Of a stretch of DNA of 64,000 nucleotides, positions 7,387 through 41,345 are shown piece by piece. Source of the DNA: a virus. Its lineage: Duplodnaviria; Heunggongvirae; Uroviricota; Caudoviricetes; Demerecviridae. The notes beneath the pieces were generated by a model. That model was not told the DNA's origin. It was given only the letters and a program-made list of their open reading frames with translations, and did not search any database. Position 1 is the stretch's first letter, and every line of letters starts with the position of its first letter. A program made the position numbers and the translations under genes. The DNA lies in the IMG/VR virus record IMGVR_UViG_2595698513_000001, positions 30,745 through 94,744 of that record; one strand, written 5' to 3'.

Positions 7387-7390
7387 CCAT

Positions 7391-7710: not shown

Positions 7711-7719
7711 CCAAGAACA

Positions 7720-7797: not shown

Positions 7798-7805
7798 CCA
7801 AACAT

Positions 7806-7892: not shown

Positions 7893-7901
7893 CCAAATTT
7901 A

Positions 7902-7974
7902 GGGGAATTAACTCAGCGGTCAGAGTGGCTGCCTGTTAAGCAGCTGGTCGTAGGTTCAAATCCTACATTCCCCG
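7902..7974 (+). tRNA. tRNA-Asn (GUU)
   Basis: Anticodon stem GCTGC/GCAGC; loop CTGTTAA. Confidence 0.85.
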
Positions 7975-7983
7975 CCAATTTAT

Positions 7984-8058
7984 GCGGCTGTGTGCGAGAT
8001 GGTTTAGGCAACCTCCCTGTCACGGAGGAGTACGTGGGTTCAAGTCCCATCGGTCGCG
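7984..8058 (+). tRNA. tRNA-Asp (GUC)
   Basis: Anticodon stem CCTCC/GGAGG; loop CTGTCAC. Confidence 0.8.
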
Positions 8059-8067
8059 CCAAATAAA

Positions 8068-8143
8068 CGGGGTGTAATGTCAGTCTGGTCAGACGGCTCG
8101 CTTTGGATGCGAGAGGTCGTAGGTTCGAATCCTACCTCCCCGA
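8068..8143 (+). tRNA. tRNA-Pro (UGG)
   Basis: Anticodon stem CTCGC/GCGAG; loop TTTGGAT; T-arm GTAGGTTCGAATCCTAC. Confidence 0.8.
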
Positions 8144-8482
8144 CCAATTTTACGAGAGACACTACTCTTTGCACTATAGGGTAGTCTGTAGAAGGGACGT
8201 GCAAATCCCGTGCAGCATTCTGTCTAGCATATGCAGAAGCGGTTAGGATCACATGTTTAGTAATGCTCCTTATATCAGCTGCGGCGGATAAGGTTGCCCC
8301 TTACTCGGTTAAGTCCAAAAACCCCTGTGGAATATGTAGAAGTGACCAGTGTGGGAACTGGCTTGTGGAGCGTATCTAAACCCTCACTTCCGAAAGAGTT
8401 ATCTTTTGACTGCTAGCAAGCCCATAGCTATAGACCGTGACGAAAGGCAGCTCACGGGGCAGTGCAAAAGATAATTTACAAT

Positions 8483-8566
8483 GCAGGAGTGGCGTAATTG
8501 GTAGCCGCGCTGGATTTAGATTCCAGTGGTCTTTGTACCGTGAGGGTTCAAGTCCCTCCTCCTGTA
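8483..8566 (+). tRNA. tRNA-Leu (UAG), class II
   Basis: Anticodon stem CTGGA/TCCAG; loop TTTAGAT; long variable arm. Confidence 0.8.
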
Positions 8567-8585
8567 CCAAACAAGGGAGAACGTT

Positions 8586-8954
8586 ATGGATAGTACATTC
8601 CAAGGCTACATAGGTGAAATGAAAGCAAAAGCTTATTTCGCAGCCCTAGGGTATTATGTATTTAGCGATGACTCTGGTAATTCGCCAGTAGACTTTTTAG
8701 TAATGAAAGACGGCATCGTAAAGAAAGTACAAGTAAAAAGCACCAGAGGACGCAACAAAGCAGACACTGGTTGGGAGGTACAACTAAAATCTGTACGCAC
8801 AAATAAGACAGCAAACAAAGTAAAGCACTTTGATAATACTGCCCAAGACTTCTTATTTGTTTACTTTCCAGAAATAGACAAGTATAAGCTACTTATCTCT
8901 AGCGAGATAACGCAAAAAGCCGCTATGCTAGTCAAAGATATAGAATTAAGGTAG
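8586..8954 (+). CDS. small PD-(D/E)xK-like nuclease (putative)
   Basis: PVDFLVMKDGIVKKVQVKS resembles D-(D/E)xK core; lies inside tRNA cluster where homing nucleases are common. Confidence 0.4.
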   Translation: MDSTFQGYIGEMKAKAYFAALGYYVFSDDSGNSPVDFLVMKDGIVKKVQVKSTRGRNKADTGWEVQLKSVRTNKTANKVKHFDNTAQDFLFVYFPEIDKYKLLISSEITQKAAMLVKDIELR

Positions 8955-9041
8955 GTCAATCCGAAAGCTGGCGACGGAAACTGGTTTGAACCCAGTCGAG
9001 TGTAGTGATACGCCTTGAGAGTTCGACCCTCTCACCTACCG
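8950..9041 (+). tRNA. tRNA-Ser (UGA), class II
   Basis: Acceptor GGTAGGT/ACCTACC; anticodon stem ACTGG/CCAGT; loop TTTGAAC; long variable arm. Confidence 0.7.
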
Positions 9042-9137
9042 CCAATTAGAGCACAGAGGTTCGGGTTCCCCTCTGTATGCGTATGAGTCCTGATGCTGGG
9101 CGGCTGCGGTGAAACTCCGAAGGGCAGATTAATTAAT

Positions 9138-9221
9138 GCGTACTGAAGACTGAGCGGTCGGTCACTAGCCTTCCAAGCTAGCGCCCTTAATCGGGATAGG
9201 GTTCGACTCCCTCTGTACGCT
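9138..9221 (+). tRNA. tRNA-Gly (UCC)-like with atypically long (~15 nt) variable region
   Basis: Acceptor GCGTACT/TGTACGC; anticodon stem CTAGC/GCTAG; loop CTTCCAA like E. coli Gly(UCC); discriminator U. Confidence 0.55.
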
Positions 9222-9345
9222 CCAAATTTCTGAATCTACTATATAAAGCACTAAGGTCAACGGTACAGTAGTTGGTAACGGGGTTCGAGTCCCGACTGGG
9301 GGTGTAAGAGACCCCGAGTGACGACCTAATTCAGAAAATATTAAA

Positions 9346-9374
9346 TTGCTAAACATCACGATTTAACGTATAAT
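9346..9374 (+). promoter_or_regulatory. T5-type early promoter driving tRNA-Thr
   Basis: TTGCTA-17-TATAAT; leader AGTTACATAAAGTTGAGAAACGAATC lacks GGAG and runs into tRNA at 9404. Confidence 0.65.
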
Positions 9375-9403
9375 AGTTACATAAAGTTGAGAAACGAATC
9401 AAA

Positions 9404-9476
9404 GCTTCCTTAGCTCAGTTGGGAGAGCAGCTCACTTGTAATGAGCAGGTCGTCCGTTCGAATCGGACAGGGAGCA
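9404..9476 (+). tRNA. tRNA-Thr (UGU)
   Basis: Anticodon stem GCTCA/TGAGC; loop CTTGTAA; driven by early promoter 9346-9374. Confidence 0.85.
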
Positions 9477-9498
9477 CCATTTATTTACGGAGAAGAAG

Positions 9499-9681
9499 AT
9501 GATTTATTTTAAAAATAAAGCAGGCAAAACTGGCGTTGTATCTTTTGATGATGCCGAATATGAGCTTCAAGCAGTCCAAAACCCGCAGGAGTTACACAAA
9601 GATGTAACTGTAGCTGTACGCGGTTTACCGAAAGACTGTTTACCCGCAGAGAAAACTGCTTTCTTAACCGTAGTCAAATAA
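9499..9681 (+). CDS. hypothetical small protein
   Basis: RBS GGAGAAGAAG then ATG; sits between tRNAs. Confidence 0.5.
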   Translation: MIYFKNKAGKTGVVSFDDAEYELQAVQNPQELHKDVTVAVRGLPKDCLPAEKTAFLTVVK

Positions 9682-9686
9682 ACAAT

Positions 9687-9759
9687 AGGGGATTAGCTCA
9701 GTTGGTAGAGCATCGGAATTTGACTCCGAGGGTCGCAGGTTCAAGTCCTGCATCCCCCG
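9687..9759 (+). tRNA. tRNA-Gln (UUG)
   Basis: Anticodon stem TCGGA/TCCGA; loop ATTTGAC; A1-C72 mismatch. Confidence 0.75.
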
Positions 9760-10027
9760 CCATTTTTGGGTACTAAACGTTACATATAACTATGTGGTGA
9801 AAGTAGCTTGTAACAATCCTAGGTGAATGTGCTAATACACCCTAGACCCAATATTTTATTACTCTATTGTGAACGTGCTATGTCTCACCGGAGACCGCTA
9901 ACGACGGATGTACTTACCGCTGCATTTGCAAGTAACCAGTTTCATTGTAGCATAAAGCTACCTAGTTGTAGTTATGACCGAGAATAAGCCAATATGAGGT
10001 CGGGTATAGAGAACATTAATCATTTTT

Positions 10028-10101
10028 GCAGGATTAGCTCAGTAGAGTAGAGCACTTCCCTTACAAGGAAGGGGTCGTAGGTTCAAGTCCTACATCCTGT
10101 A
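10028..10101 (+). tRNA. tRNA-Val (UAC)
   Basis: Anticodon stem CTTCC/GGAAG; loop CTTACAA. Confidence 0.8.
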
Positions 10102-10188
10102 CCATCTTTAAGCGGTTCAGCCAATAAAAGTTAGGATATATGCCCTAGCCTGCTTAAAAATGGTAACATAATAACAAAGGATGAAGAT

Positions 10189-10593
10189 ATGCAACTTGAT
10201 GAAATGCAAGCTAAATTGCTTGAAGTACGTAAAGCAGGTAACAAAGTTGGTCGTGCAGTAATGCAGTCACTTATTGCTGACTTTGACAAACAAGCACGTA
10301 CTGGTAAAGAAGTTGATGGTATGGCACTTATTCGTAAGTACCTAGACAACGCCAAAACTAACATGCAGCTAGAAGTACAGCGAAAGAACTCAGCAGGGGC
10401 TAAAGCATACGGCCTAGAAGCAGCATTTCTAGAGTCTCTATTGCCTAAGCAATTAACTGACGAACAGCTTCGTAACATTATCGAAACTGGTGACTTCAAA
10501 AACATTGGTGAAGTAATGAAGTTTCTTCGCTTCAACTACCAAGGTCAATATGACGGTGGTGTAGCTTCTAAAATTGCTCGTGAGGTTCTATGA
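10189..10593 (+). CDS. GatB/YqeY-domain protein
   Basis: LPKQLTDEQL...IGEVMKFL...DGGVASKIAREVL pattern typical of YqeY; RBS AAGGATG. Confidence 0.6.
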   Translation: MQLDEMQAKLLEVRKAGNKVGRAVMQSLIADFDKQARTGKEVDGMALIRKYLDNAKTNMQLEVQRKNSAGAKAYGLEAAFLESLLPKQLTDEQLRNIIETGDFKNIGEVMKFLRFNYQGQYDGGVASKIAREVL

Positions 10594-10820
10594 ATCCAGT
10601 AGAAGTTAAAACAAAACTTGACATTGTTGATGGTGAGTTAAAAGACCTCACCCTCAAAGCAAAAGTTCTAGCAGAACAAAAAAGAAAGCTAGAAAGTGAA
10701 AGAGCACGTCTACGAGCTATTCAACAAACAGCTTGTGACCATCCAAGAGAAGCTCGTAGTTCTGTTATGGTTAATAACGAACCCGAATACTTCTGTACGT
10801 TGTGTGGTAAAGATTTTTAG
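10590..10820 (+). CDS. hypothetical protein with C-terminal CxxC pairs
   Basis: ATGA overlap; coiled-coil plus C..C...C..C tail. Confidence 0.5.
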   Translation: MNPVEVKTKLDIVDGELKDLTLKAKVLAEQKRKLESERARLRAIQQTACDHPREARSSVMVNNEPEYFCTLCGKDF

Positions 10821-10887
10821 GGCTGAGCAGGTGGCTGCAAAGCGGATTCCAAACCCGCCTACGTAGGTTCGACTCCTACCAGTTCTG
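10819..10887 (+). tRNA. tRNA-Trp (CCA)
   Basis: Acceptor AGGGCTG/CAGTTCT with G:U pairs; loop TTCCAAA. Confidence 0.65.
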
Positions 10888-10974
10888 CCAAATACTTGTG
10901 CCTAGAAACAAAGGTTGTGAAGGGTGACAGCTTTATAAGTCTCGGGAGTAACGCACTTCCATAGGTACAACAAT

Positions 10975-11047
10975 ACTTCCGTAGCTCAGTTGGTAGAGCA
11001 AACGACCGATAATCGTTAGGTCACTGGTTCGAGTCCAGTCGGGAGTA
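10975..11047 (+). tRNA. tRNA-Ile (GAU)
   Basis: Anticodon stem AACGA/TCGTT; loop CCGATAA. Confidence 0.85.
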
Positions 11048-11051
11048 CCAA

Positions 11052-11124
11052 GTCCCTTTAGCTCAGTGGTTAGAGCGTCCTGCTCATAACAGGAGGGTCA
11101 CTGGTTCAAGTCCAGTAAGGGGCA
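11052..11124 (+). tRNA. tRNA-Met (CAU)
   Basis: Anticodon stem TCCTG/CAGGA; loop CTCATAA; T-arm ACTGGTTCAAGTCCAGT. Confidence 0.8.
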
Positions 11125-11153
11125 CCATATTGCAATAGCACAACCCCGTGCTT

Positions 11154-11238
11154 GGGCGGTGTTCGCACTAGAATCGTAGTTGGCGAACTAAGTAATAAAA
11201 ACTAGGGGATCGTAGCATCCGCCCACCAATTCTAATTA
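11154..11238 (+). other. non-canonical tRNA-like element
   Basis: GGGCGG... / ...CCGCCCACCA acceptor-like pairing plus CCA; atypical T-loop. Confidence 0.25.
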
Positions 11239-11259
11239 TAAATATCATGGAGATACTAT

Positions 11260-11442
11260 ATGAAAACAGCTAACCTACTAAAGTTCGCGTCTGAAAAACC
11301 ATTCGTTGTAAACCGTCACAAGCGTTCTCAAGAAAAGTTGCGCTCTCAGTGCCAACGCCTTGTGAAATCCGGTCGTCTAGTAGAAGTTGAGAAGACACAT
11401 GATCAAGTCATGTACCGTACTCCAGAGTCACAAACAGAATAA
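11260..11442 (+). CDS. hypothetical small protein
   Basis: ORF between tRNAs; RBS GGAGA. Confidence 0.5.
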   Translation: MKTANLLKFASEKPFVVNRHKRSQEKLRSQCQRLVKSGRLVEVEKTHDQVMYRTPESQTE

Positions 11443-11443
11443 A

Positions 11444-11516
11444 GCGGGAATAGCTCAGTAGGTAGAGCACTTGGTTGAAGACCTTGGTGTCGCTGGTTCA
11501 ATTCCAGCTTCCCGCA
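11444..11516 (+). tRNA. tRNA-Phe (GAA)-like
   Basis: Loop TTGAAGA; anticodon stem has two U-U mismatches; otherwise canonical. Confidence 0.65.
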
Positions 11517-11527
11517 CCACTAACAAT

Positions 11528-11602
11528 GCGCGATTAGCTCAGATGGATAGAAGCAGCACCCTACGAAGGTGAAGGTCTGGGGTTCGAGTCCCTGATCGCG
11601 CG
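11528..11602 (+). tRNA. tRNA-Arg (ACG)
   Basis: Loop CTACGAA; T-arm TGGGGTTCGAGTCCCTG. Confidence 0.8.
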
Positions 11603-11609
11603 CCAAATT

Positions 11610-11696
11610 GGAGAGATGCCCGAACTGGTTAAGGGAGCTCCCTGCTAAGGAGTCGGCTGCTAACGTGGTCTGTGAGTTCAAATCTCACTCTCTCCG
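11610..11696 (+). tRNA. tRNA-Ser (GCU), class II
   Basis: Anticodon stem GCTCC/GGAGT; loop CTGCTAA; long variable arm. Confidence 0.8.
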
Positions 11697-11826
11697 CCAA
11701 TTAATATCCTAGTAACCACTAGGGAGTCCACGAGAACTCATAAGGATGCTCGAAGATGTTTTATTACTTTAATGATTTCTTTCCTGAAACCGTAACTCCT
11801 GTTGCGGTCACTATAAGGAGAGAAAC

Positions 11827-12030
11827 ATGTGGCACAGACACAAACTAAGAGTTAATTGGCATCGCCGTCTTAAAGACGATGATATTGCAATTGAAAACGG
11901 TTTTACCAACCGCTTGTTCAGACAGACGGATGTATACATGTACGATTTGTCTTGGTGGGATTACCCAAGTAGAACAGTACAGCGTAGTTGGAAAAGCCAA
12001 TCTAAGAAACGAAAACAATGGGAACGCTAG
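11827..12030 (+). CDS. hypothetical small Trp/Arg-rich protein
   Basis: Strong RBS TAAGGAGAG then ATG. Confidence 0.55.
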   Translation: MWHRHKLRVNWHRRLKDDDIAIENGFTNRLFRQTDVYMYDLSWWDYPSRTVQRSWKSQSKKRKQWER

Positions 12031-12055
12031 ACGTTCCCTTTCTTGTGGAGTAAAT

Positions 12056-12604
12056 ATGAAGAAACAAATCTATCTAGCAGGGGATATGCTAAACCGTGGT
12101 GCTCAACTTCAACGAGCGGAAGAAAAACGAGATTTACTTAATCTAGGTTACGAATTATACGTACCACAAGATAATAAAGATATAAATGATAAAGAAAATC
12201 TCAACTCGAATGATGGTCTAGCAGAAAAAATTGTTCGTGCAGATACTGATGGTATCATGAATTCTGATATTGTGGTTATGGAAGCCCGTGAAGCAGCACT
12301 CGGTACTTGTATTGAGCTAGGTCAAATCAAGGGCATGAAAGACGTTGCTAAAACAGTTAAGTTTATGATACGAGCAGGGGCTAGTATCGAAGAAATCGAA
12401 GCTTACATGACTGAAATCGAGAATAAGCTTGTACTAGTTCACAACTCGGATATTCGTCGTGCAGGTAATCCTACAGAAACAGGGGATAGACGTAGCTATG
12501 GGCCACACCAGTATATGTATGGTGTAGTGCTGGATGTTACTAACGGTCATGGTTTTTATGATTGGGGCGAGATTACATACATTCTAGATAAAGGTAACGT
12601 GTAA
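12056..12604 (+). CDS. nucleoside 2-deoxyribosyltransferase-like (Ndt/Rcl fold) protein
   Basis: IYLAGDML...ELYVPQ...SDIVV...AALGTCIELG resembles YLAGP.F / D.GT..E.G Ndt motifs. Confidence 0.55.
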   Translation: MKKQIYLAGDMLNRGAQLQRAEEKRDLLNLGYELYVPQDNKDINDKENLNSNDGLAEKIVRADTDGIMNSDIVVMEAREAALGTCIELGQIKGMKDVAKTVKFMIRAGASIEEIEAYMTEIENKLVLVHNSDIRRAGNPTETGDRRSYGPHQYMYGVVLDVTNGHGFYDWGEITYILDKGNV

Positions 12605-13236
12605 TGGATTTGTTTCAAAAGATTTGGGCAGCATTTGCTGTCCTATTAGTAGCTCTAGCGTGTGTTATTTCTGGGGCTGATTTATTTGTATCTACTTTAT
12701 CAATGGTAGGTATTCTATTCGTACTCGGTGTTTCGTTTAAGAAACCTGAATCTCAACTACTAGGGGCAGCTTTCTGTGGCTTCCTAGCCTATGCTTCCTT
12801 TGGGGCAGGGTTCTTTGCCAACGCCCTGGTTAATGGAGCATTTCTTCTTCCTGCAACTATATTTGGTTATTTCTATTGGAAACGGCGAACGGGCGCAGGT
12901 AATCTTGAGCGTAGTCTAAGTAAAACTCAGTTCATGCAAATGAGCACTGCTATAGCTACAGCTACGATTATAACATTTTTCTTTACAATAGGGGCTGGAG
13001 GAGCATTACCTTTACTAGATGCTTTCACTGCGGTGTTACCTGTAGCAGCTACCCTATTAATGATTGGAGCCTATAGAGACCAATGGTTACTATGGATTCC
13101 TTACAACGCGATACAAGCCTTTATGTGGTTTACCGCCGCATCTTTGCAACCTGCGGTACTGGCGGTATTCGTTGTTAAATTAGTATTCTTAATCAATTCC
13201 CTGATTGGATATTATTATTGGAGAAAAGAGGCGTAA
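12604..13236 (+). CDS. pnuC: PnuC-like nicotinamide riboside transporter
   Basis: ~7 TM, 210 aa, Trp-rich helices; WLLWIPYN and YYYWRK tail as in PnuC; ATGG overlap. Confidence 0.6.
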   Translation: MDLFQKIWAAFAVLLVALACVISGADLFVSTLSMVGILFVLGVSFKKPESQLLGAAFCGFLAYASFGAGFFANALVNGAFLLPATIFGYFYWKRRTGAGNLERSLSKTQFMQMSTAIATATIITFFFTIGAGGALPLLDAFTAVLPVAATLLMIGAYRDQWLLWIPYNAIQAFMWFTAASLQPAVLAVFVVKLVFLINSLIGYYYWRKEA

Positions 13237-13250
13237 GCCTCTTTCTTTAA
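13227..13250 (+). terminator. rho-independent terminator
   Basis: GAGGCGTAAGCCTC then TTTCTTT. Confidence 0.6.
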
Positions 13251-13258
13251 AGTTTTAT

Positions 13259-13287
13259 TTGCTAAACTCTCTTATTTCACGTATAAT
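13259..13287 (+). promoter_or_regulatory. early promoter TTGCTA-17-TATAAT
   Basis: Preceded by terminator 13227-13250. Confidence 0.6.
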
Positions 13288-13318
13288 TATTATATAAATT
13301 AATGAGAGAGGTTATCAA

Positions 13319-13579
13319 ATGATTGAATGTTGGGAATGGGCAGAAGTTGCTGCACACATTTTAGGTCTTCCAGAAGAAACTGACGAAGAAGTTGTAGAAC
13401 ATCATCTACTCCAAGAATACGGTCTAGACTTGGAAGGTTTTGGCAATATTGCCGATAAACTCCTTAGCATGACCGCGCCTATTGAGACTTCCATCGCTGG
13501 TTCAGTTGTACAGGCTTTTGTTAAGTTCGAAGACACACATGTACGAGCATTAGTTAAGAAGGACTTCAAAATTGATTAA
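13319..13579 (+). CDS. hypothetical acidic protein
   Basis: After promoter 13259-13287. Confidence 0.55.
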   Translation: MIECWEWAEVAAHILGLPEETDEEVVEHHLLQEYGLDLEGFGNIADKLLSMTAPIETSIAGSVVQAFVKFEDTHVRALVKKDFKID

Positions 13580-13719
13580 GTTATCTCTAGAACAAGCAGA
13601 AGTAGCATTAACTCTTTTAAATGATATTGAAGAAGAAAAGGGTACTTTACTACCACAGGAAGAACAGCTTCAAGCATACCTAGACGCAGCCATTGATGCT
13701 GAAAAAGATAAAAACTAAA

Positions 13720-13748
13720 TTGCTAAACTGCTGAGAAATCTGTATAAT
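13720..13748 (+). promoter_or_regulatory. T5-type early promoter plus conserved leader
   Basis: TTGCTA-17-TATAAT; AGTTCCATAAAGTTGAGAAACGGAGATTGTTATG. Confidence 0.7.
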
Positions 13749-13779
13749 AGTTCCATAAAGTTGAGAAACGGAGATTGTT

Positions 13780-14085
13780 ATGAAAAACGTAGTTATCAGT
13801 GAAAGCCTATTTAAAGCAATGATGGAGCAGTTAAGTTACTGGGCTGATTATTGTGACGACTCGGAAGGCTATCTAGCTGCTCTTATGGATGAAGTTCAGG
13901 AAGTTGCTAGTACTAAGGAGCCTAGAACTATAGGTTTATTCGATAAGCTACCAGAACCTACTTCTACGGAAGATGTAGTTATCCAAGGTACAGGTACTTT
14001 ACAGAAAGTTTGGAAAGTATCAGATGCAACTCCTCGTGGAAAAGCAGACAAAGTATTCGTATGGAAACTTGTGGGTATTAGTTAA
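13780..14085 (+). CDS. hypothetical early protein
   Basis: After promoter 13720-13748 plus conserved leader. Confidence 0.6.
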   Translation: MKNVVISESLFKAMMEQLSYWADYCDDSEGYLAALMDEVQEVASTKEPRTIGLFDKLPEPTSTEDVVIQGTGTLQKVWKVSDATPRGKADKVFVWKLVGIS

Positions 14086-14093
14086 AATTAAAT

Positions 14094-14167
14094 GGGTAGT
14101 AAGCTGAAGTGAACGAAGCGCGGGATTGCAAACCCCGTCTTACTCGGTTAAAGTCCGAGACTACCCT
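14094..14167 (+). tRNA. tRNA-Cys (GCA)
   Basis: GGGATTGCAAACCCC anticodon arm; discriminator U; T-loop TTAAAGT. Confidence 0.75.
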
Positions 14168-14183
14168 CCAAGGACTTATTGGT

Positions 14184-14257
14184 GTGACGTTGGCTGATGT
14201 GGAAATGGCTCCGGGTTGTGATTCCGGAAGATGCGGGTTCGAACCCCGTACGTCACC
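14184..14257 (+). tRNA. tRNA-His (GUG)
   Basis: Anticodon stem CCGGG/TCCGG; loop TTGTGAT; T-arm GCGGGTTCGAACCCCGT. Confidence 0.7.
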
Positions 14258-14286
14258 CCAATAAGTCTTTACTAAAGGAGATAACG

Positions 14287-14481
14287 ATGATTAAGAAAAT
14301 CATTAAACGTAACAAACAAAAATTCACTGCCATCTTTAAAGAAGGTCGAACTATGTTCCCTCGTGGTGAGTTTCACAATATTACATACCTAGGTGAATCA
14401 AACGGAAATAGTTTGTTCCGTGCTGATGAAGGTTTTGCATACAAAGGCATGACTTTCTGTAATGAAGCTACCTGGTCTTAA
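14287..14481 (+). CDS. hypothetical small protein
   Basis: RBS AAGGAGATAACG then ATG. Confidence 0.55.
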   Translation: MIKKIIKRNKQKFTAIFKEGRTMFPRGEFHNITYLGESNGNSLFRADEGFAYKGMTFCNEATWS

Positions 14482-14491
14482 ATAAACAAAT

Positions 14492-14565
14492 GCGCCCTTA
14501 GCTCAGCTGGATAGAGCACGTCCCTTCTAAGGATGTGGTCGTAGGTTCGAATCCTACAGGGCGTG
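14492..14565 (+). tRNA. tRNA-Arg (UCU)
   Basis: Loop CTTCTAA; T-arm GTAGGTTCGAATCCTAC. Confidence 0.85.
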
Positions 14566-14583
14566 CCATCTTTGGAGAAGATT

Positions 14584-14748
14584 ATGTTTACACTATTCGT
14601 AGTATGGCTTGTATTCCAAGGAATAACCTGTACTGCACTATCTGATTGTAAAAGTGAAGATATGTGTAATAAAATCATGTGGATGCCAACAGTAGTACGT
14701 TGGATTATCTTTACTGTCCCATCCCTAATTGTATGGGCTAATAAATAA
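14584..14748 (+). CDS. small membrane protein
   Basis: RBS GGAGAAG then ATG; hydrophobic 54 aa. Confidence 0.45.
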   Translation: MFTLFVVWLVFQGITCTALSDCKSEDMCNKIMWMPTVVRWIIFTVPSLIVWANK

Positions 14749-14752
14749 CAAC

Positions 14753-14836
14753 GCTGGCGTGGTGGAATTGGTAATACACGTGGGACTTAAAATCCCATGC
14801 CCTAGAGGATTGAGAGTTCGAGTCTCTCCGCCAGTA
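14753..14836 (+). tRNA. tRNA-Leu (UAA), class II
   Basis: Anticodon stem TGGGA/TCCCA; loop CTTAAAA; long variable arm. Confidence 0.8.
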
Positions 14837-14857
14837 CCAAATTCCTAAAAACTTGAG

Positions 14858-16539: not shown

Positions 16540-16829
16540 GACGCTTACTACTACCTATACTCTTGTTGTCAGGCTGCGTATCTGTTGAACCTAAACCTGA
16601 AAATATAGAACTTCAAAAATACATACCCAATAAACCAAGCCCTGTCCAAACTTATTCCGTTAATTGGAAAGTAGATAGCAATGGTAACGTTTATCTTTCT
16701 AGCACAGATGGTGTAAAAGTCAATGCGGAAAGAAAGGATATGATTAGATATATAAAAGATTTACAAAATATTGTTTGTTATTACGAAAACTCATACTCAT
16801 TCTGTAAGGAGAATATTAATGAAAAATAA
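16536..16829 (+). CDS. outer-membrane lipoprotein, putative o-spanin
   Basis: Lipobox LLLSGC; ATGA coupling to i-spanin. Confidence 0.45.
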   Translation: MRRLLLPILLLSGCVSVEPKPENIELQKYIPNKPSPVQTYSVNWKVDSNGNVYLSSTDGVKVNAERKDMIRYIKDLQNIVCYYENSYSFCKENINEK

Positions 16830-17466
16830 GTGTACCGCAGGCTTTGCTCGTTCAGGAAAAGATACCTTTGCTGGCTTTCTAGCTAGTGAACTAAACATGG
16901 ATACCTATGCCCTAGCTCAACCTATTAAAGATATTATGTGTGCTTTATTTGGTTGGGGAGAAGAACACCGTGATGGCTCTTATAAAGAAATTGAGATGTT
17001 ATATTCAATCTCACCAGAAACACTAGATGCTGCCGGTATTATTTATAACACCTACGGTTTAAACTACTATGAAGAATTTCATGATTGTTGGGGTAAGCTA
17101 GTAGGACTGTTTGATATAATGATTAAGGAAGATGATTTAGGCTATTGTATTATTAGCCCTAGACGTGCATTCCAGCTATTTGGTACAGAATGGGGCAGAG
17201 CTATTGATGACGACATCTGGCTAGATATTGCTCCGAAAGAAAATACTATTATTACAGATGTTCGTTTCGATAATGAGGCAAAATACTTCAAAGACTTAGG
17301 TGCACAAGTTATCTTGATTGAACGTCCAGGATTCCGTCCAGTAACAAATGGACATGCTAGCGAGGCCGGAGTATCTCGTGAATTTGTAGATATTGTAGTT
17401 ACAAATGACAAAGGATTAAAAGAGTTACAAGAATCCGCCAAAGCAATCGCTACTGGCCAATTATAA
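16819..17466 (+). CDS. deoxynucleoside monophosphate kinase (T4 gp1-like)
   Basis: GFARSGKDT P-loop; LAQPIKD; ITDVRFDNE; IERPG; HASEAGV; VVTNDKGLKEL. Confidence 0.8.
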   Translation: MKNKCTAGFARSGKDTFAGFLASELNMDTYALAQPIKDIMCALFGWGEEHRDGSYKEIEMLYSISPETLDAAGIIYNTYGLNYYEEFHDCWGKLVGLFDIMIKEDDLGYCIISPRRAFQLFGTEWGRAIDDDIWLDIAPKENTIITDVRFDNEAKYFKDLGAQVILIERPGFRPVTNGHASEAGVSREFVDIVVTNDKGLKELQESAKAIATGQL

Positions 17467-17552: not shown

Positions 17553-17581
17553 TTTACATTTTTGTAAAATTCTCCTATAAT
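17553..17581 (+). promoter_or_regulatory. sigma70-like promoter TTTACA-17-TATAAT for fibre/secreted-protein operon
   Basis: Lacks the conserved T5-type leader; follows terminator 17479-17509. Confidence 0.55.
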
Positions 17582-17623
17582 ATTAACAAATATTGAAAAC
17601 AGTTTATAAGGAGAAACAAATAA

Positions 17624-24850: not shown

Positions 24851-25522
24851 ATGAACAAAATGAATCTTTTAGCCTCTCTATATGCTTTATTGCAGGATAT
24901 AAAAGATCCAAAAACTCTGTTAATGAGAGTAATTTCTATTTTTATTCTCTTGGTTAGCTACCTGATAGTTACCAATCAGAGCACCCTCTTTGACTTTGCT
25001 AAGAACTTTTCAAGAACCACCGTTATAGAACAAGTACAAGCAGAAAGAGAAGCGCAATATCCTAGGGTTGCCAAGGAAAAAGCATCAATGCTATATGTGC
25101 AAGCTAACTCGGATGCTGTATTTATTGCGGAGTATACTCCCAAGTTTATCAATAACTACCAAGACATTGTTGCTTGGGAGGGTAAAATCAACGTAGACCC
25201 ATCGAAACTTAAAAAAGCAGTTATAGATAAATCAAGTGTTACTTACCAAAACCATTTGGTGGGTAGAAACCAGTCTATTCTGTTTGAAAAAGTAGTACCA
25301 ATGAGGGGGGCATTCGTTACTAATGGCTTAGAGTATGAATCTTTAGGCATAAAGTACATGTACACTTGCCCTATCTTTAACCAAGCAAATAGCTACTCTG
25401 GTTACGTTGGTATAGCATGGGCAGAAGAACCTTACGGGGATAAAAAAGAAAAGGCTCTATTGGAAGCATACCTAGAAAGGGTATGTAATCCACAAGCAAG
25501 GGCACTGGGGAGATATAAGTAA
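24851..25522 (+). CDS. putative holin (large, single TM)
   Basis: After promoter 24801-24829; RBS GGGGG; TM VISIFILLVSYLIV; immediately upstream of endolysin. Confidence 0.45.
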   Translation: MNKMNLLASLYALLQDIKDPKTLLMRVISIFILLVSYLIVTNQSTLFDFAKNFSRTTVIEQVQAEREAQYPRVAKEKASMLYVQANSDAVFIAEYTPKFINNYQDIVAWEGKINVDPSKLKKAVIDKSSVTYQNHLVGRNQSILFEKVVPMRGAFVTNGLEYESLGIKYMYTCPIFNQANSYSGYVGIAWAEEPYGDKKEKALLEAYLERVCNPQARALGRYK

Positions 25523-25523
25523 T

Positions 25524-25913
25524 ATGGGATGGTCATTACCTTTTGGAAAACTATGGACTGGGTTCAGTCGTAAAGAGTTCGCATGTAAGTGTGGGTGTGG
25601 GTATGATACAGTAGATGCAGAGCTATTACAAGTACTGAAACGCCTTAAAAAACACTTTAAAGGCAAAGCAGTATTTATTGATAGTGGTTGCAGATGTGTT
25701 CAGCACAACAAAAAAGTTGGAGGAGCTTCTAAGTCTCAGCACTTATTCGGTAGGGCAGCCGATGTAAGAGTTGCTGGAGTATTTCCCGACACTGTTGCAG
25801 AGTATCTATTAGAAACATACCCTGGTAAGTATGGTATTGGACGTTACCGTTCATTCACTCATATTGATACCAGAAAAGTGGAAGCACGATGGGACTATCG
25901 TGCTAAAGTGTAA
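25524..25913 (+). CDS. endolysin, peptidase M15 family
   Basis: FSRKEFACKCGCG...SGCRCVQHN...SQHLFGRAADV...FTHIDTR zinc-peptidase motifs. Confidence 0.8.
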   Translation: MGWSLPFGKLWTGFSRKEFACKCGCGYDTVDAELLQVLKRLKKHFKGKAVFIDSGCRCVQHNKKVGGASKSQHLFGRAADVRVAGVFPDTVAEYLLETYPGKYGIGRYRSFTHIDTRKVEARWDYRAKV

Positions 25914-25915
25914 AT

Positions 25916-25940
25916 TAAGAGAGCTTCGGCTCTCTTTTTT
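25916..25940 (+). terminator. rho-independent terminator after endolysin
   Basis: AGAGAGCTTCGGCTCTCT then TTTTTATTTT. Confidence 0.75.
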
Positions 25941-25950
25941 ATTTTCTTGA

Positions 25951-25979
25951 ATTGTCAAACTTCAAAAATTTTCATATAA
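25951..25979 (+). promoter_or_regulatory. early promoter TTGTCA-17-TATAAT
   Basis: Follows terminator 25916-25940. Confidence 0.6.
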
Positions 25980-26006
25980 TATATAAATAGATTGTGAGGG
26001 GAGCTT

Positions 26007-26468
26007 ATGAAAATTGAAAAACTAGAACATTTAGTGGATACAGCTCGCGAATGGGCTAAGTTACATCATGCTGGTCAAAAATACGCATATGGCTCGGATT
26101 ACTTTGAGACACATATTCTAGAAGTAGAAAAGACCGTTATAGAATTAATGCATAGCCCACATTACACAAGAACAGACAGATACCTAGCTAGGGCTGTTGC
26201 ACTTCTACATGACATAGTAGAAGATACAGACGTGAGTATTACAGAAATCCAACGCACATTCGGGCATAGAATAGCACAATGCGTATTAGACCTAACCAAA
26301 CTAAGTGGAGAAGACTGGGAATCTCAATGGTCTAGAGCCAAACGAAACTACCTATCTCTAGTAGTTAAGAAAGCAGATATTCTAGTAAACTTGAAAGTAT
26401 CAGTAGCGACAAACAAATTAAATTTGGTTGACAAATACACAACTGGCTTACGTTATTTATCTTTGTAA
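26007..26468 (+). CDS. HD-domain small alarmone hydrolase-like (RelA/SpoT HD family)
   Basis: LHHAGQKYAYGSDYFETH and LLHDIVEDTD motifs. Confidence 0.6.
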   Translation: MKIEKLEHLVDTAREWAKLHHAGQKYAYGSDYFETHILEVEKTVIELMHSPHYTRTDRYLARAVALLHDIVEDTDVSITEIQRTFGHRIAQCVLDLTKLSGEDWESQWSRAKRNYLSLVVKKADILVNLKVSVATNKLNLVDKYTTGLRYLSL

Positions 26469-26497
26469 TTGCTAAACAACTCAAATTTTCGTATAAT
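26469..26497 (+). promoter_or_regulatory. early promoter TTGCTA-17-TATAAT
   Basis: Leader ATACGCATAGTTTGAAAGGAGATTG. Confidence 0.65.
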
Positions 26498-26524
26498 ATA
26501 CGCATAGTTTGAAAGGAGATTGTC

Positions 26525-27565
26525 TTGAATATTTTTGTTTTAGATTTAGACCCGAAAGTGGCTGCACAATACCACTGTGATAAGCATGTTATCTCTCAGA
26601 TGAAAGAGGGTGTACAAATGCTTACAACTACTATGATGCGTTGGGGTAACACACCCCCACTCAATAAATCTGGCGAGCCATACAAGAAAGCTCATGAAAA
26701 TCATCCATGTACTAAATGGGTATACGAAGGGCTTGAAAACTATCATTGGCTGTGGGATTTAACTTATGCACTTGTCGAAGAAGCGGAGTTTCGCTTTGGT
26801 GGTACTTACCATATTGCAAGTATTATGCGTGATGGATCACTACCTCGTACTCCGAAACAACATCCCACTCCAAGGACTCGTACACCTTTTGCTAATGCTA
26901 CAGCAGACTGGCTTAAATCTAGTGATAATTGGGATGATAAGTCGTCGTTCGTAACATTAAATGCTGTAGATATTTATCGTCTATATTATATTGTAGACAA
27001 GATGCATATGACAGCAGTAGACATGGGTGAGCAGAACATACATTGGCAGTCTAAGCATACACTAGGCGAGCATTTCGATGAATATTCAATTTGGACTAAA
27101 CGTGGGGCACCGGAATTTATGAGCGATCGTTTCTATGCACAGCAATGTGAGTACTTCGGTATCAAGCCAGCAGAACTTATCCACATGGGTCGTTACCCTG
27201 ACTCAGAAGATGCCAAAAAGCTTAAAGCCAAAATGTATCGTAAGCTAGGTAAAAAGTCTAGCGGTTCTGTAACTGTGGCTAAGGCTAAGAAGACTACTAA
27301 AGCTGATGTATTAGTAGATATTCGTGAGCTAATGGGTCACGACGGTATGGATTGCCTAATGAAGCTAACCTTACCTGATATGCAAAAGGTTAAGCTAGCA
27401 CTTATAGCTATGCACGAGAATCAGACCGAGTGCCCAGATATGCCAACTGGTCGTGCTAAGGCACCTTATGTTGCAGCAGTTAAGCAGCTATTTAACTGTG
27501 ACGCAGACTTTTCTAAGCTAACTATGGTTGGATTAAAAGAGTTACTTGAGCACTTCGGTGCTTAA
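26525..27565 (+). CDS. hypothetical 346-aa protein (TTG start)
   Basis: After promoter 26469-26497; RBS AAAGGAGA then TTG. Confidence 0.5.
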   Translation: MNIFVLDLDPKVAAQYHCDKHVISQMKEGVQMLTTTMMRWGNTPPLNKSGEPYKKAHENHPCTKWVYEGLENYHWLWDLTYALVEEAEFRFGGTYHIASIMRDGSLPRTPKQHPTPRTRTPFANATADWLKSSDNWDDKSSFVTLNAVDIYRLYYIVDKMHMTAVDMGEQNIHWQSKHTLGEHFDEYSIWTKRGAPEFMSDRFYAQQCEYFGIKPAELIHMGRYPDSEDAKKLKAKMYRKLGKKSSGSVTVAKAKKTTKADVLVDIRELMGHDGMDCLMKLTLPDMQKVKLALIAMHENQTECPDMPTGRAKAPYVAAVKQLFNCDADFSKLTMVGLKELLEHFGA

Positions 27566-27581
27566 AATCGCAAATCTTGAT

Positions 27582-27610
27582 TTGCTTAACTTACTAAAAT
27601 TTTATATAAT
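27582..27610 (+). promoter_or_regulatory. early promoter TTGCTT-17-TATAAT
   Basis: Same leader as the 26469 element; upstream AAATCTTGATTTGCTT shared with 41288. Confidence 0.65.
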
Positions 27611-27637
27611 ATACGCATAGTTTGAAAGGAGATTAGC

Positions 27638-31400: not shown

Positions 31401-32648
31401 ATGATGAATAAAGCGCAAGTAATTCTAGCCTCTACAATTGGTTCAGTAGCAATCCTAGCAGGCTCTCTAGTATGGGGTATTGGTAATAACGACCTCGGCT
31501 TCCGACAAGTTATCCAGTCTCCTAGCGGTGAGATTTCGGTTAAGTTTGACCAAGGTTGGTACTGGCAAGGTTTTGATACGGTAACTACTTACCCTGACAA
31601 CATTAACTACGAAACACCAGACTCTAAAATTATAGATTCCCAAGGTCGTCAAGTAATTAAAGAAGGTATCAACGTTCAGTACCAAGATGGTGGTATCGGT
31701 TATGTAGACGGCTCAGTAATGATCGCTTTACCTAATGACAAAGACAACATGATTGCACTTCACAAAGCGGCAAACAGTCCAGCAGGTTTGATTAGCAAAA
31801 TTATCAGCCGTGAAGTACGTCAAGGTCTTAACCTGACAGCAGGTCTAATGACCTCAGAAGAAGCCTACGCAGTGCGTCGTAATGACTATGCAAACTGGGC
31901 ACGAATGCAGGTTGAAAAAGGTCGCTTCTCTACCGTCCTAAAAGAGAAGAAAGTCGAAATGGAAGACGGCAAGATTCAGAAGAAAATGGTGCCAACCATT
32001 AAATACCAAAAAGATGGTATTACTCCTGAGTACCAAGATGGTATGTTCGCCGATTACGGTCTAAAAGTAACAGGTTTCCAGATTACATCATGGGACTTCG
32101 AAGATAAGACCAAAGAACAGATTGCTAAAAAACGCGATGCGGAAATGGCAATCATTACTGCGAAAGCTAACGCTGACCGAGCTGATTGGGAAACCAAAGA
32201 AGTAGAAGCTAAAGGTAAGAAAGCTATCGCTAAAGTTAAATACGAACAGCTACAGATTAAAGAAAAAGCCACAATCGCTGCTGACCGTGAAAAAGAAGTT
32301 GCTATTACCAACGCTAAACGTAAGGTTGAAGTTGCAAAACAACTTGTACAAGAACAAACACAACGAGCTATCGCTGCTAAGAAAGAAGCAGAAGCATTTA
32401 CAACCATGTCTGTAGCGCGAGCTAATGACAAAAAACGTATGATGCAATCAGATGGTGCTCTACAACAAAAACTAGAAGCTTATGTTCAAACTCAAAAAGT
32501 ATGGGCTGATGCTTACGCTAAACGTGCTGTCCCAACTATCCAAATGGGTGATGCACAAGGCACAAACGGTGACGCTTCGCAGTTCCAACAAATGCTTAAC
32601 GCAATGGTGGCGAAAGACCTAATGGTTAAGACACAAGTCACTAAATAA
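31401..32648 (+). CDS. membrane-anchored protein with SPFH/band-7-like region and long coiled coil
   Basis: N-terminal TM; K/E-rich coiled coil. Confidence 0.4.
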   Translation: MMNKAQVILASTIGSVAILAGSLVWGIGNNDLGFRQVIQSPSGEISVKFDQGWYWQGFDTVTTYPDNINYETPDSKIIDSQGRQVIKEGINVQYQDGGIGYVDGSVMIALPNDKDNMIALHKAANSPAGLISKIISREVRQGLNLTAGLMTSEEAYAVRRNDYANWARMQVEKGRFSTVLKEKKVEMEDGKIQKKMVPTIKYQKDGITPEYQDGMFADYGLKVTGFQITSWDFEDKTKEQIAKKRDAEMAIITAKANADRADWETKEVEAKGKKAIAKVKYEQLQIKEKATIAADREKEVAITNAKRKVEVAKQLVQEQTQRAIAAKKEAEAFTTMSVARANDKKRMMQSDGALQQKLEAYVQTQKVWADAYAKRAVPTIQMGDAQGTNGDASQFQQMLNAMVAKDLMVKTQVTK

Positions 32649-38765: not shown

Positions 38766-38964
38766 TTTATATTTTAATTTATGTTTTGCGTGGATGCTGT
38801 TTATGTTATATGATGCATCTAATGAGAAATACAACCTAGATGGGTGGAAGCATCCTACAGCGATGATACTATTCCCAGGTACATTCGCTGCGGTTATTTT
38901 AGGTACGCTTTTCACCTTGTTTGATGAGTTAATTCCAAAAATCTTGAATTGCTTCAAACGATAA
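38758..38964 (+). CDS. small membrane protein
   Basis: 2 TM. Confidence 0.45.
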   Translation: MISLYFNLCFAWMLFMLYDASNEKYNLDGWKHPTAMILFPGTFAAVILGTLFTLFDELIPKILNCFKR

Positions 38965-38977
38965 ATTCTTATATAAT
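38949..38977 (+). promoter_or_regulatory. T5-type early promoter plus conserved leader
   Basis: TTGCTT-17-TATAAT. Confidence 0.65.
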
Positions 38978-39010
38978 ATATACATAAAGTTGAGAAACGG
39001 AGATTGTCTT

Positions 39011-39568
39011 ATGAAATTTGATATGTACTGTGATTGGGCACCATTTGGTATCGGCGTTGTTGTGGTAGAAGAAGGTCGTGGTGTTTATTATAATCGTTAC
39101 GAAACACAATGGACTAACCAAAGCAACTCATGCCAAGGTGAGCTAGAAGCTATCAACATTTGTTTAGATATTATTGATGAGCTAGGCTTACAGAATGTCA
39201 CAGTACATACAGACCATGAGCCTCTTATCCAGTCACTAGAGCGTGGTACTATTCCTAGCTGTAAGAAAACTAGAAAGAAAACCTCTCGTGCTAATAAGGT
39301 TGCTCTATACACTAAAACAATCAATCGTATTAAAGAAGGCGGCATTGATATAGTACATTGTAAAGCTCACTCGGGACATATCTTTAGTAACGCAGCAGAT
39401 GTATTAACTCGTAAACCTACGGAAAGTAATCCAGAATGGGCTGACCGTCTAAGAGCTAACAATAAATTCCATAGTAAAGCTAAATCAATTACTAAACCAA
39501 ACCCAACACTATGGGATGTTGTACAGGCTTGGTTTGTTAACCTAACTTACGGAGCAGTAGCATGTTAA
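39011..39568 (+). CDS. divergent RNase H-like protein (second paralog)
   Basis: After promoter 38949-38977; GELEAINI, TDHEPLI, CKAHSGHIFSNAADVL resemble RNase H motifs. Confidence 0.45.
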   Translation: MKFDMYCDWAPFGIGVVVVEEGRGVYYNRYETQWTNQSNSCQGELEAINICLDIIDELGLQNVTVHTDHEPLIQSLERGTIPSCKKTRKKTSRANKVALYTKTINRIKEGGIDIVHCKAHSGHIFSNAADVLTRKPTESNPEWADRLRANNKFHSKAKSITKPNPTLWDVVQAWFVNLTYGAVAC

Positions 39569-40348: not shown

Positions 40349-40377
40349 TTGCTTGAGTTTGTAATTTCTTATATAAT
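40349..40377 (+). promoter_or_regulatory. T5-type early promoter
   Basis: TTGCTT-17-TATAAT; leader ATATATACATAAATTGAAACGGAGATAG. Confidence 0.65.
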
Positions 40378-40408
40378 ATATACATAAATTGAAACGGAGA
40401 TAGTCTTT

Positions 40409-41287: not shown

Positions 41288-41316
41288 TTGCTTGAACATC
41301 AAAATCTTTATATAAT
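41288..41316 (+). promoter_or_regulatory. T5-type early promoter
   Basis: Near-identical copy of the 40349 element. Confidence 0.65.
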
Positions 41317-41345
41317 ATATACATAAATTGAAACGGAGATAGTCT

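Follow-up and report, generated by a model that had tools for sequence, protein, structure and literature searches.

The 64-kb stretch of phage DNA analysed here (the window) comes from Vibrio phage pVp-1 (NC_019529.1), to which window positions 25500-27600 are 100% identical, and it carries a gene whose product, gp084, is, as judged from its sequence, a stand-alone phage small alarmone hydrolase (SAH) of the RelA/SpoT-homologue (RSH) superfamily. gp084 was assigned to this class because it belongs to the HD_4 family, has a complete active site and is preceded by conserved expression signals. It is probably a metal-dependent 3'-pyrophosphohydrolase that is expressed from its own sigma-70 promoter, lowers the levels of (p)ppGpp and/or (p)ppApp and possibly repairs tRNA ends. 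The phage is classified in Demerecviridae, Ermolyevavirinae, Vipunavirus, and its host is V. parahaemolyticus (NC_019529.1); a position in the window equals the position in NC_019529.1 minus 30744.

Family, fold and active site of gp084

An earlier note on this DNA had called a 153-residue open reading frame (ORF), and exactly the same coordinates are found in the ORF list:

26007 to 26468, plus strand: coding sequence of the stand-alone RSH-type HD hydrolase, with an ATG start, 153 amino acids and the TAA stop included

The product of this ORF is 100% identical to pVp-1 gp084 (YP_007007907.1), which is labelled 'metal-dependent phosphohydrolase' in RefSeq and 'hypothetical protein' in the original GenBank record. 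The 153 amino acids form one domain, spanning residues 1-152, without a synthetase domain, which by definition sets an SAH apart from a long RSH. The ratio of nonsynonymous to synonymous substitution rates (dN/dS) among gp084 orthologues, calculated by the pairwise Nei-Gojobori method for pairs with unsaturated synonymous sites, was 0.04-0.16. Therefore, the hydrolase gene is under purifying selection.

The Pfam model HD_4 (PF13328, RelA/SpoT hydrolase domain) matched gp084 with 37 bits at a gathering score of 27.2 (E 3.5e-9), and the general Pfam HD model reached 21.3 bits, just under its cut-off of 22. HD_4 was likewise matched by 10 of the 10 aligned relatives of gp084. A match to PHROG 990, 'metal-dependent phosphohydrolase', was obtained with an E-value of 8e-43, and the top-ranking NCBIfam models were those of spoT_relA, which gp084 matched only in part, within the N-terminal hydrolase region. 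When gp084 was compared as a single sequence with the sequences of the PDB, Rel hydrolase domains (3e-6), Aph1 (1.7e-5) and Mesh1 (6e-5) were retrieved. With a family profile made of gp084 and nine relatives, Aph1 was matched over residues 5-142, that is, at full length, with an E-value of 2e-25 and 92.7 bits, while the Rel hydrolase domains scored about 55 bits (E ~1e-13). The HD_4, PHROG 990 and profile matches all lie far above chance level.

The AlphaFold2 model of gp084 consists of nine helices and has a mean predicted local distance difference test score (pLDDT) of 95.1 and a predicted template modelling score (pTM) of 0.90. In a Foldseek comparison of this model with the PDB, four Aph1 chains came out on top with template modelling (TM) scores of 0.75-0.85, followed by MESH1, the SAH of P. 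aeruginosa (PaSAH), Rel, SpoT and other SAHs. Unrelated HD proteins ranked no higher than 45, with E-values above 0.1, and the model thus has the RSH hydrolase fold, which can be separated from other folds of the HD superfamily. The HD_4 score above the gathering score, the profile matches to Aph1 and Rel and the SAH-like model bear out the suggestion of the earlier note that this gene encodes a RelA/SpoT-type HD hydrolase.

A word-indexed protein search yielded 10 relatives, and an exhaustive search of representative proteins was needed for a view of the family. In this profile search of 1.84 billion representative proteins, 36,207 clusters were found at E <= 1e-3 and 11,598 at E <= 1e-10. 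Among the best 150 of the 36,207 clusters, the length was mostly 120-200 residues. A look at cluster names gave little, as these clusters were singletons, one of them named '(p)ppGpp synthase/HD superfamily hydrolase'. Fusions or proteins with two HD_4 stretches, of 319-856 residues, were also encountered (L052, L055 with an ORF of 856 residues, P0014, P0021, P0026, P0036, P0041 and P0085), in contrast to the usual stand-alone form of 140-160 residues.

Residue equivalences were taken from HMMER alignments to RelSeq (1VJ7) and Aph1 (7SMG) and from MAFFT alignments. The following segments of the gene carry the active-site and signature residues:

26067 to 26114, plus strand: N-terminal motif block H21-A-G-Q24...Y26...Y32-F-E-T-H36, from the alignments to RelSeq 1VJ7 and Aph1 7SMG
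26205 to 26228, plus strand: L67-H68-D69-I-V-E72-D73-T74, with the HD metal dyad and the ED catalytic dyad, equivalent to RelSeq H77, D78, E81 and D82
26334 to 26336, plus strand: R110, equivalent to the Aph1 signature residue R96 in the alignment to 7SMG
26367 to 26396, plus strand: K121-K-A-D124-I-L-V-N128-L-K130, with the last metal ligand (D124) and the Asn that contacts the ribose (N128)
26433 to 26438, plus strand: K143-Y144, equivalent to the Aph1 signature residues K133-Y134 in the profile alignment to 7SMG

The Mn2+ ligands H53, H77, D78 and D144 of RelSeq correspond to H36, H68, D69 and D124 of gp084, H36 being its first metal-ligand histidine, and the catalytic dyad E81-D82 corresponds to E72-D73. 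The conserved Asn (N148 in RelSeq, N114 in Aph1) is N128, four residues past D124, and the further conserved positions H39, Q42, Y50 and K141 of RelSeq are represented by H21, Q24, Y32 and K121. Across 219 aligned family sequences these residues are nearly invariant, with H68 kept in 217, D69 in 218, E72 in 218, D73 in 217, D124 in 210 and N128 in 216, and the position of R110 is an Arg in 173 of the 219. H21, Q24, Y32, H36 and Y144 are invariant in alignment A1. Gaps left by hmmalign at the column of H36 are an artefact of a one-residue insertion in the clade of gp084 and were resolved in the MAFFT alignment. As read from these alignments, the active site of gp084 is complete in its metal-binding and catalytic residues.

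The motifs on which the earlier note had relied fared well, with small corrections. Its LHD..EDT is the 'LHDIVEDT' of residues 67-74 and repeats the Rel motif 'LHDVVEDT' almost verbatim. Its HxxGQ...Y..H is also present, but the equivalent of Rel H39 is H21 and not H20 of 'HHAGQ' (residues 20-24), and the Y..H element, which does exist, reads Y32-F-E-T-H36 and is one residue longer than Rel Y50-x-x-H53. Since the motifs do align with the metal-binding residues of the HD domain, the objection that they might lie elsewhere, which the note had raised against its own proposal, does not apply.

Expression signals

The gene is flanked by the following signals, the Shine-Dalgarno sequence being read directly from the DNA:

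25917 to 25936, plus strand: intrinsic terminator, formed by the hairpin AAGAGAGC-TTCG-GCTCTCTT and the run of T after it, closing the holin-endolysin unit
25952 to 25980, plus strand: sigma-70-type promoter with -35 TTGTCA, a 17-nt A/T-rich spacer and -10 TATAAT, agreeing with the consensus at 11 of 12 positions
25996 to 26003, plus strand: Shine-Dalgarno sequence GAGGGGAG, 3 nt ahead of the ATG of gp084
26469 to 26497, plus strand: next promoter of the same family, TTGCTA-17-TATAAT, beginning at the first base past the gp084 stop and driving gp085

In six related phage genomes, the order of terminator, -35 element, 17-nt spacer, -10 element and Shine-Dalgarno sequence upstream of the orthologue is retained, and a purine-rich block at the Shine-Dalgarno position also occurs in gp084 orthologues. 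The stems of the terminator vary among the six phages, yet they stay complementary through compensatory changes. The annotated terminator of phage T5 sits at the equivalent spot after lys, a gene that is surrounded by promoter/terminator pairs in T5.

The count of generic promoter-like sites in the region is uninformative alone, since 20 were observed versus 19.9 expected and there is thus no enrichment. The promoter is supported by the extended-motif search and the cross-phage alignment. The window contains 10 copies of an extended -10 element, AAATTTTCRTATAATAT, where 1.3 are expected, and 10 copies were reached in 0 of 100 shuffles. Nine of the 10 copies are on the plus strand, like the gene, and each of the nine precedes an annotated start codon by 42-57 bp:

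4248 to 4264, plus strand: copy of AAATTTTCRTATAATAT
6339 to 6355, plus strand: copy of AAATTTTCRTATAATAT
17567 to 17583, plus strand: copy of AAATTTTCRTATAATAT
25966 to 25982, plus strand: copy of AAATTTTCRTATAATAT
26483 to 26499, plus strand: copy of AAATTTTCRTATAATAT
27596 to 27612, plus strand: copy of AAATTTTCRTATAATAT
38963 to 38979, plus strand: copy of AAATTTTCRTATAATAT
40363 to 40379, plus strand: copy of AAATTTTCRTATAATAT
41302 to 41318, plus strand: copy of AAATTTTCRTATAATAT

The statement of the earlier note that the gene has its own promoter therefore holds: the element at 25952-25980 is conserved upstream of the orthologues and is a member of this repeated family. In pVp-1, the AAATTTTCRTATAATAT family seems to correspond to the strong early promoters of T5.

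No terminator was found between gp084 and gp085, and read-through of hydrolase transcripts into gp085 is therefore likely. The surroundings of gp084, with tRNA, nucleotide-metabolism and lysis genes, correspond to the early block of T5. This position, the expected recognition by host sigma-70 and the analogy with the promoter/terminator pairs around T5 lys suggest that gp084 may be expressed early.

Base pocket and phage clade

For Aph1, a signature of six residues has been defined, D24, R96, D116, R119, K133 and Y134, of which D24, D116 and R119 adjoin the base, while Y134 has been proposed to contact the pyrophosphate of the substrate; the double mutant D24R+R119A gains ppGpp hydrolysis, and the Aph1 family has been delimited via homology in the C-terminal half, Y90-E143 (PMC10083569). 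gp084 shares this homology, as seen in the full-length profile alignment and in Aph1 being the best structural match, and it retains three of the six signature residues, R96, K133 and Y134, as R110, K143 and Y144. The three that adjoin the base are lost: D24 is replaced by Y26 and D116 by K130, and R119 sits in a 4-residue stretch that is absent from gp084 right after the K121-K130 block. At the same base-contacting site as Y26, RelSeq has R44 and T. thermophilus Rel (TtRel) R43, and at position 130 RelSeq has R150. The guanine contacts of TtRel (R43, R44, S45, N150 and T153) are not preserved either, as R43, R44, S45 and T153 correspond to Y26, A27, Y28 and V131 and the Asn alone is retained, as N128. 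The scaffold of gp084 is thus Aph1-like, but its base pocket falls outside both characterised specificity classes, the guanine and the adenine one.

In a census of 201 distinct sequences, comprising the top-scoring ones and the homologues from phage loci, three types of pocket prevailed:

Position 26 Asp, 148 of 201: Aph1-like pocket, position 130 mostly Asp
Position 26 Tyr, 30 of 201: gp084-type pocket, position 130 mostly Arg or Lys
Position 26 Arg, 20 of 201: Rel-like pocket, position 130 Arg or Ser

About 22 of the sequences with Y26 form a coherent group, with 38-72% identity to gp084 and as mutual nearest neighbours. Genomic contexts were read for members of this clade including JSF10, L060/L061, L062, L064 and L063. 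Six members lie on T5-like phage contigs in the order T-type holin, M15 endolysin and HD_4 gene; in the seventh context, L063, the upstream genes have no family match, so that the holin-endolysin order is unconfirmed there. A DUF7179 gene follows the hydrolase in L060, L062, L063 and L064. T5 has the same layout of holin, lys, terminator and promoter, and its next slot is occupied not by an HD_4 gene but by the following one:

L065 (phage T5), 7437 to 7853: T5.039, an uncharacterised protein with four transmembrane segments

The presence of T5.039 in the slot of the hydrolase indicates that this position seems to be a variable slot for accessory genes in T5-like genomes. Inheritance of the hydrolase with the T5 backbone was rejected, as no HD_4 gene is found at the T5 slot and no T5-type Escherichia phage is among the tblastn matches listed. 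Given the synteny within the clade and the T5 slot without HD_4, the hydrolase is a stable feature of the Vibrio/marine T5-like branch and not of the whole family. More distant HD_4 homologues were found by tblastn in 285 phage records, and their phages and hosts include Pseudomonas, Streptococcus prophages and PVP-SE1-like phages of Klebsiella, Salmonella and Cronobacter. A 198.8-kb contig (L034, IMGVR_UViG_3300022843_000001) carries three HD_4 homologues within about 6 kb (ORFs at ~2319, 3958 and 8004), which suggests that genes of the small alarmone-hydrolase type have multiplied locally as paralogues in this jumbo-sized phage.

In pVp-1, the neighbours of gp084 encode a holin, an M15 endolysin, a Pyr_excise-domain protein and a DUF7179 protein. 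The Pyr_excise protein is gp085 (26525-27565, plus strand), annotated 'DNA binding protein', whose first ~90 residues match the Pfam family with 24.8 bits at a cut-off of 23; Pyr_excise denotes a pyrimidine dimer DNA glycosylase (Pfam). Its remaining ~250 residues have no family match, and it has its own promoter of the AAATTTTCRTATAATAT family. A linkage of the hydrolase to this downstream 346-residue gene was considered and dropped, since the two genes are neighbours in pVp-1 and JSF10, whereas four further members of the clade lack this arrangement.

The annotated products of pVp-1, taken over the whole genome, include no alarmone synthetase, and no RelA_SpoT domain was detected in the 18 pVp-1 ORFs, mostly larger unannotated ones, that were scanned with Pfam, small ORFs being left unscanned. 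An SAH acting as a type IV antitoxin or immunity protein has a toxic synthetase adjacent to it or in the same genome, and none was found in this set. For the same reason we set aside the idea that gp084 guards against a phage-borne synthetase in the manner of Aph1, again within the annotated products and the 18 scanned ORFs and with small ORFs unscanned. As no synthetase partner was detected, gp084 is regarded as an 'orphan' among phage SAHs, as are the enzymes of PVP-SE1 and SSU5. PADLOC gave no match for gp084 or a neighbour, and there is thus no sign that they belong to a known defence system.

Elsewhere in the window, ARAGORN identified 22 tRNA genes for 19 amino acids at 7230-14839 on the plus strand, interspersed with small ORFs, as is typical of T5-like phages; this cluster may matter if the hydrolase repairs tRNA 3' ends. 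Three further products could be given a family: gp073 (16819-17466, plus strand), annotated 'putative hydrolase', is of the deoxynucleotide monophosphate kinase family DNMK (E 1.7e-23); gp097 (31401-32648, plus strand), 'hypothetical', has an SPFH/Band 7 domain (E 2.3e-8); and gp112 (39011-39568, plus strand), also 'hypothetical', has an RNase H domain (E 5.8e-8), besides the annotated RNase H gp042.

Proposed function and comparison with known systems

We propose that gp084 would act as a compact, all-helical HD enzyme in which Mn2+ or Mg2+ is bound by H36, H68, D69 and D124. The metal, together with the E72-D73 dyad, would cleave purine nucleotides that carry a 3'-pyrophosphate, (p)ppGpp and/or (p)ppApp, and release this group, so that GDP/GTP or ADP/ATP would be regenerated, and 3'-pyrophosphorylated CCA ends of tRNA may be an additional substrate. 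Transcribed by the host RNA polymerase from a strong sigma-70-type promoter of a repeated family within a T5-type early block, gp084 would hold down the alarmone levels of the infected Vibrio cell. Neither the stringent response of the host nor toxic alarmone synthetases, be they defences or toxins, would then shut down transcription, translation and the supply of nucleotides. For phage SAHs, roles against alarmones and against toxic small alarmone synthetases (toxSAS) have already been proposed (PMC7229694), and each of these targets is plausible for pVp-1. Catalysis, substrate, timing and benefit for the phage are what we infer for gp084.

Several observations weigh against this proposal. 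The hydrolase activity of gp084 and of the other clade members is a prediction made from their residues, and the early timing is drawn from the analogy with T5. The base-selecting residues of gp084 (Y26, A27/Y28, K130 and the deletion of the R119 loop) are unlike those of every characterised enzyme, and a substrate other than the classical alarmones is therefore possible. Moreover, 5 of the ~22 distinct clade sequences have a changed metal-binding or catalytic residue:

D124A: isolate phage Ceto, in a cluster of 3 member sequences
D73N: L060 and L061, two independent assemblies
Other altered clade sequences: D124T; D69G; one with several changes
Loci of altered orthologues: L007 (Vibrio phage Ceto-like) 4001-4459; L060 and L061 4001-4462; L064 3565-4026; P0007; P0012

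The Ceto lineage shows a dN/dS of ~0.06-0.12 against close relatives despite its D124A change. Residue losses under purifying selection mean that hydrolysis may not be the sole selected property. The altered variants may be inactive, binders or still active, and they are the basis of an explanation of low probability, discussed below, in which the protein binds rather than cleaves.

A first alternative is that gp084 belongs to the Aph1 family and hydrolyses (p)ppApp exclusively, as an antidote to (p)ppApp-making toxins such as Tas1/Apk1-like effectors of the type VI secretion system, FaRel-type toxSAS or MuF-fused Apk2, and does not act on ppGpp. Aph1 is the best match both by profile (92.7 bits versus ~55 for Rel) and by structure, it is of similar compact size (149 residues versus 153), and R110, K143 and Y144 retain half of its signature. 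However, the residues of the signature adjacent to the base are precisely those that are lost, the D24R+R119A exchange suffices for Aph1 to admit ppGpp (PMC10083569), a Lys or Arg at position 130 is the Rel-like state and no synthetase partner was seen in the pVp-1 annotated products or the 18 Pfam-scanned ORFs, mostly larger unannotated ones. We therefore regard strict (p)ppApp specificity as unlikely. Quite unlikely, too, is that the main substrate is RNA, with gp084 stripping from the CCA end of tRNA the 3'-pyrophosphate added by toxSAS of the CapRel, FaRel2 or PhRel type and thereby restoring aminoacylation of host tRNAs and of the 22 tRNAs of the phage itself. Such a reversal of tRNA pyrophosphorylation is known for ATfaRel, MESH1 and SSU5 PaSpo (bioRxiv 10.1101/2021.04.30.441581; PMC11559606), the SAHs of PVP-SE1 and SSU5 rescue from tRNA-targeting toxSAS (PMC7229694) and CapRel is a bona fide antiphage system (PMC9712102). 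The heavy investment of the phage in tRNAs, with 22 genes at 7230-14839, would also fit, and the aromatic Tyr26 could stack on the terminal adenine without base-specific hydrogen bonds. On the other hand, the sequence of gp084 indicates no RNA-binding surface, and the tRNA activity of known SAHs accompanies alarmone hydrolysis, so that it is not exclusive.

A role in nucleotide or cofactor metabolism on a phospho-nucleotide that is not an alarmone, such as NADPH, as for human MESH1, or 3'-phosphorylated compounds like 3'-phosphoadenosine 5'-phosphosulfate (PAPS) or pAp, is very improbable: gp084 is nearer to Aph1 and the bacterial SAHs than to MESH1 in sequence and structure, shows no residue-level sign of NADPH binding, and MESH1 itself hydrolyses (p)ppGpp as well. 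We would give an equally small chance to a mainly non-catalytic binder which sequesters an alarmone or a pyrophosphorylated RNA end or inhibits a host RSH. Besides the Ceto lineage and the other replacements in the clade, altered catalytic or metal-binding residues are more frequent in sequences with Tyr at position 26 (5 of 30) than in all others (5 of 168; Fisher p = 0.008, in a comparison set that is biased through its ranking by profile), and a phage inhibitor that binds RelA/SpoT, the portal Gp8, is on record (PMC13483052). Nevertheless, the pVp-1 copy and most clade members keep every catalytic residue, three of the five altered clade sequences are singletons from automatic assemblies, and the loss of one ligand need not abolish the activity of an HD domain. 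Finally, RefSeq says only 'metal-dependent phosphohydrolase' and the general HD model gives a weak match (21.3 bits versus 22), which would suit a generic nucleotidase or dNTP hydrolase of the HD superfamily, of the T5 Dmp, YfbR or DatZ type and unrelated to alarmones, an explanation that we find barely credible.

A broader and rather doubtful view is that the marine T5-like clade constitutes a functionally distinct lineage of SAHs, whose rebuilt pocket (Tyr26-Ala27, Lys or Arg at position 130 and loss of the Aph1 R119 loop) would confer a substrate range unlike that of the Rel-type or Aph1-type enzymes, for example hydrolysis irrespective of the base, or a preferred action on tRNA ends that carry a pyrophosphate. 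The recurrent replacement of single metal-binding or catalytic residues under purifying selection would then mean that some members sequester their ligand rather than cleave it.

The proposed function of gp084 as an alarmone hydrolase is not new in kind, since phage-encoded SAHs and their role in counter-defence have been in the literature since 2020 and gp084 was already annotated as a phosphohydrolase. Mildly new are the marine T5-like clade with its Tyr26 and Lys/Arg130 pocket, the synteny after the lysis genes and the sporadic loss of catalytic residues; with gp084, a known class gains one more member and a clade that can be recognised, and the picture is unchanged. Phage growth is now known to be hindered by alarmone signalling, through (p)ppGpp and (p)ppApp, as well as by toxic synthetases of the RelA/SpoT type. 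Alarmone hydrolases encoded by phages are the obvious counter-measure, which has so far been shown only as rescue from toxSAS in co-expression and not in real infection. For a test in infection, gp084 is a clean candidate: pVp-1 is a virulent, culturable phage, and its host V. parahaemolyticus is tractable and has VpEAS, an unusual and very active ppGpp synthetase (PMC12691689). The gene is single-copy with its own promoter, and sister phages provide natural variants that lack one catalytic residue. The unusual pocket could also help to define what determines specificity for guanine, adenine or RNA ends.

Among the known systems, Aph1 (PDB 7SMG; PMC10083569), the adenosine 3'-pyrophosphohydrolase 1 of a Bacteroides caccae prophage, is ~26-28% identical to gp084. 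It is an immunity protein encoded beside a MuF-fused (p)ppApp synthetase toxin, whereas gp084 has no detected synthetase partner and is located behind the lysis cassette in a virulent, T5-like phage; D24, D116 and R119, which confer the (p)ppApp specificity of Aph1 next to the base, are represented in gp084 by Y26, K130 and a deletion. The long RSH enzymes, such as RelSeq (1VJ7), B. subtilis Rel (6YXA/8ACU) and T. thermophilus Rel (6S2T), differ from the single-domain gp084, which lacks synthetase, TGS and ACT domains, has a shorter stretch from the ED motif to the last Asp and has its guanine contacts replaced. Other ways of interfering with alarmones are represented by the portal Gp8, which binds and inhibits RelA/SpoT and so evades restriction by the stringent response (PMC13483052), and by Atd1, a phage MazG-type alarmone pyrophosphatase. 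Atd1 is a functional analogue which is reported to deplete (p)ppGpp, and the depletion of ppGpp relieves abortive infection based on Toll/interleukin-1 receptor (TIR) domains (bioRxiv 10.1101/2022.06.09.495361); however, its fold, that of the all-alpha MazG NTP pyrophosphohydrolases, is unrelated to that of gp084, its chemistry is different and there is no homology.

The orphan SAHs of PVP-SE1 (gp220, PbcSpo) and SSU5 (PaSpo) resemble gp084 in being encoded without a synthetase partner, in genomes that are virulent or plasmid-like, and in their proposed role, the escape from arrest mediated by alarmones or toxSAS. PbcSpo neutralised 5 of 5 tested toxSAS in co-expression (Jimmy et al. 2020, PMC7229694), and PaSpo also rescues from toxSAS toxicity in such assays (PMC7229694). 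SAHs are furthermore able to reverse the pyrophosphorylation of tRNA CCA ends (bioRxiv 10.1101/2021.04.30.441581; PMC11559606), and CapRel-type toxSAS are antiphage systems (PMC9712102). PVP-SE1 gp220 is 33% identical to gp084 over residues 21-125 (pairwise E 1e-13) and has the same catalytic residues. The two differ in the pocket, which reads GQ-K-D-K...N-S-D in gp220, with the Aph1-like D/D, and GQ-K-Y-A...N-L-K in pVp-1, and also in their neighbourhood, since gp220, unlike gp084, adjoins a thymidylate kinase gene. A similar unresolved SAH has recently been discussed for Pseudomonas phage Adele (PMC12846349).

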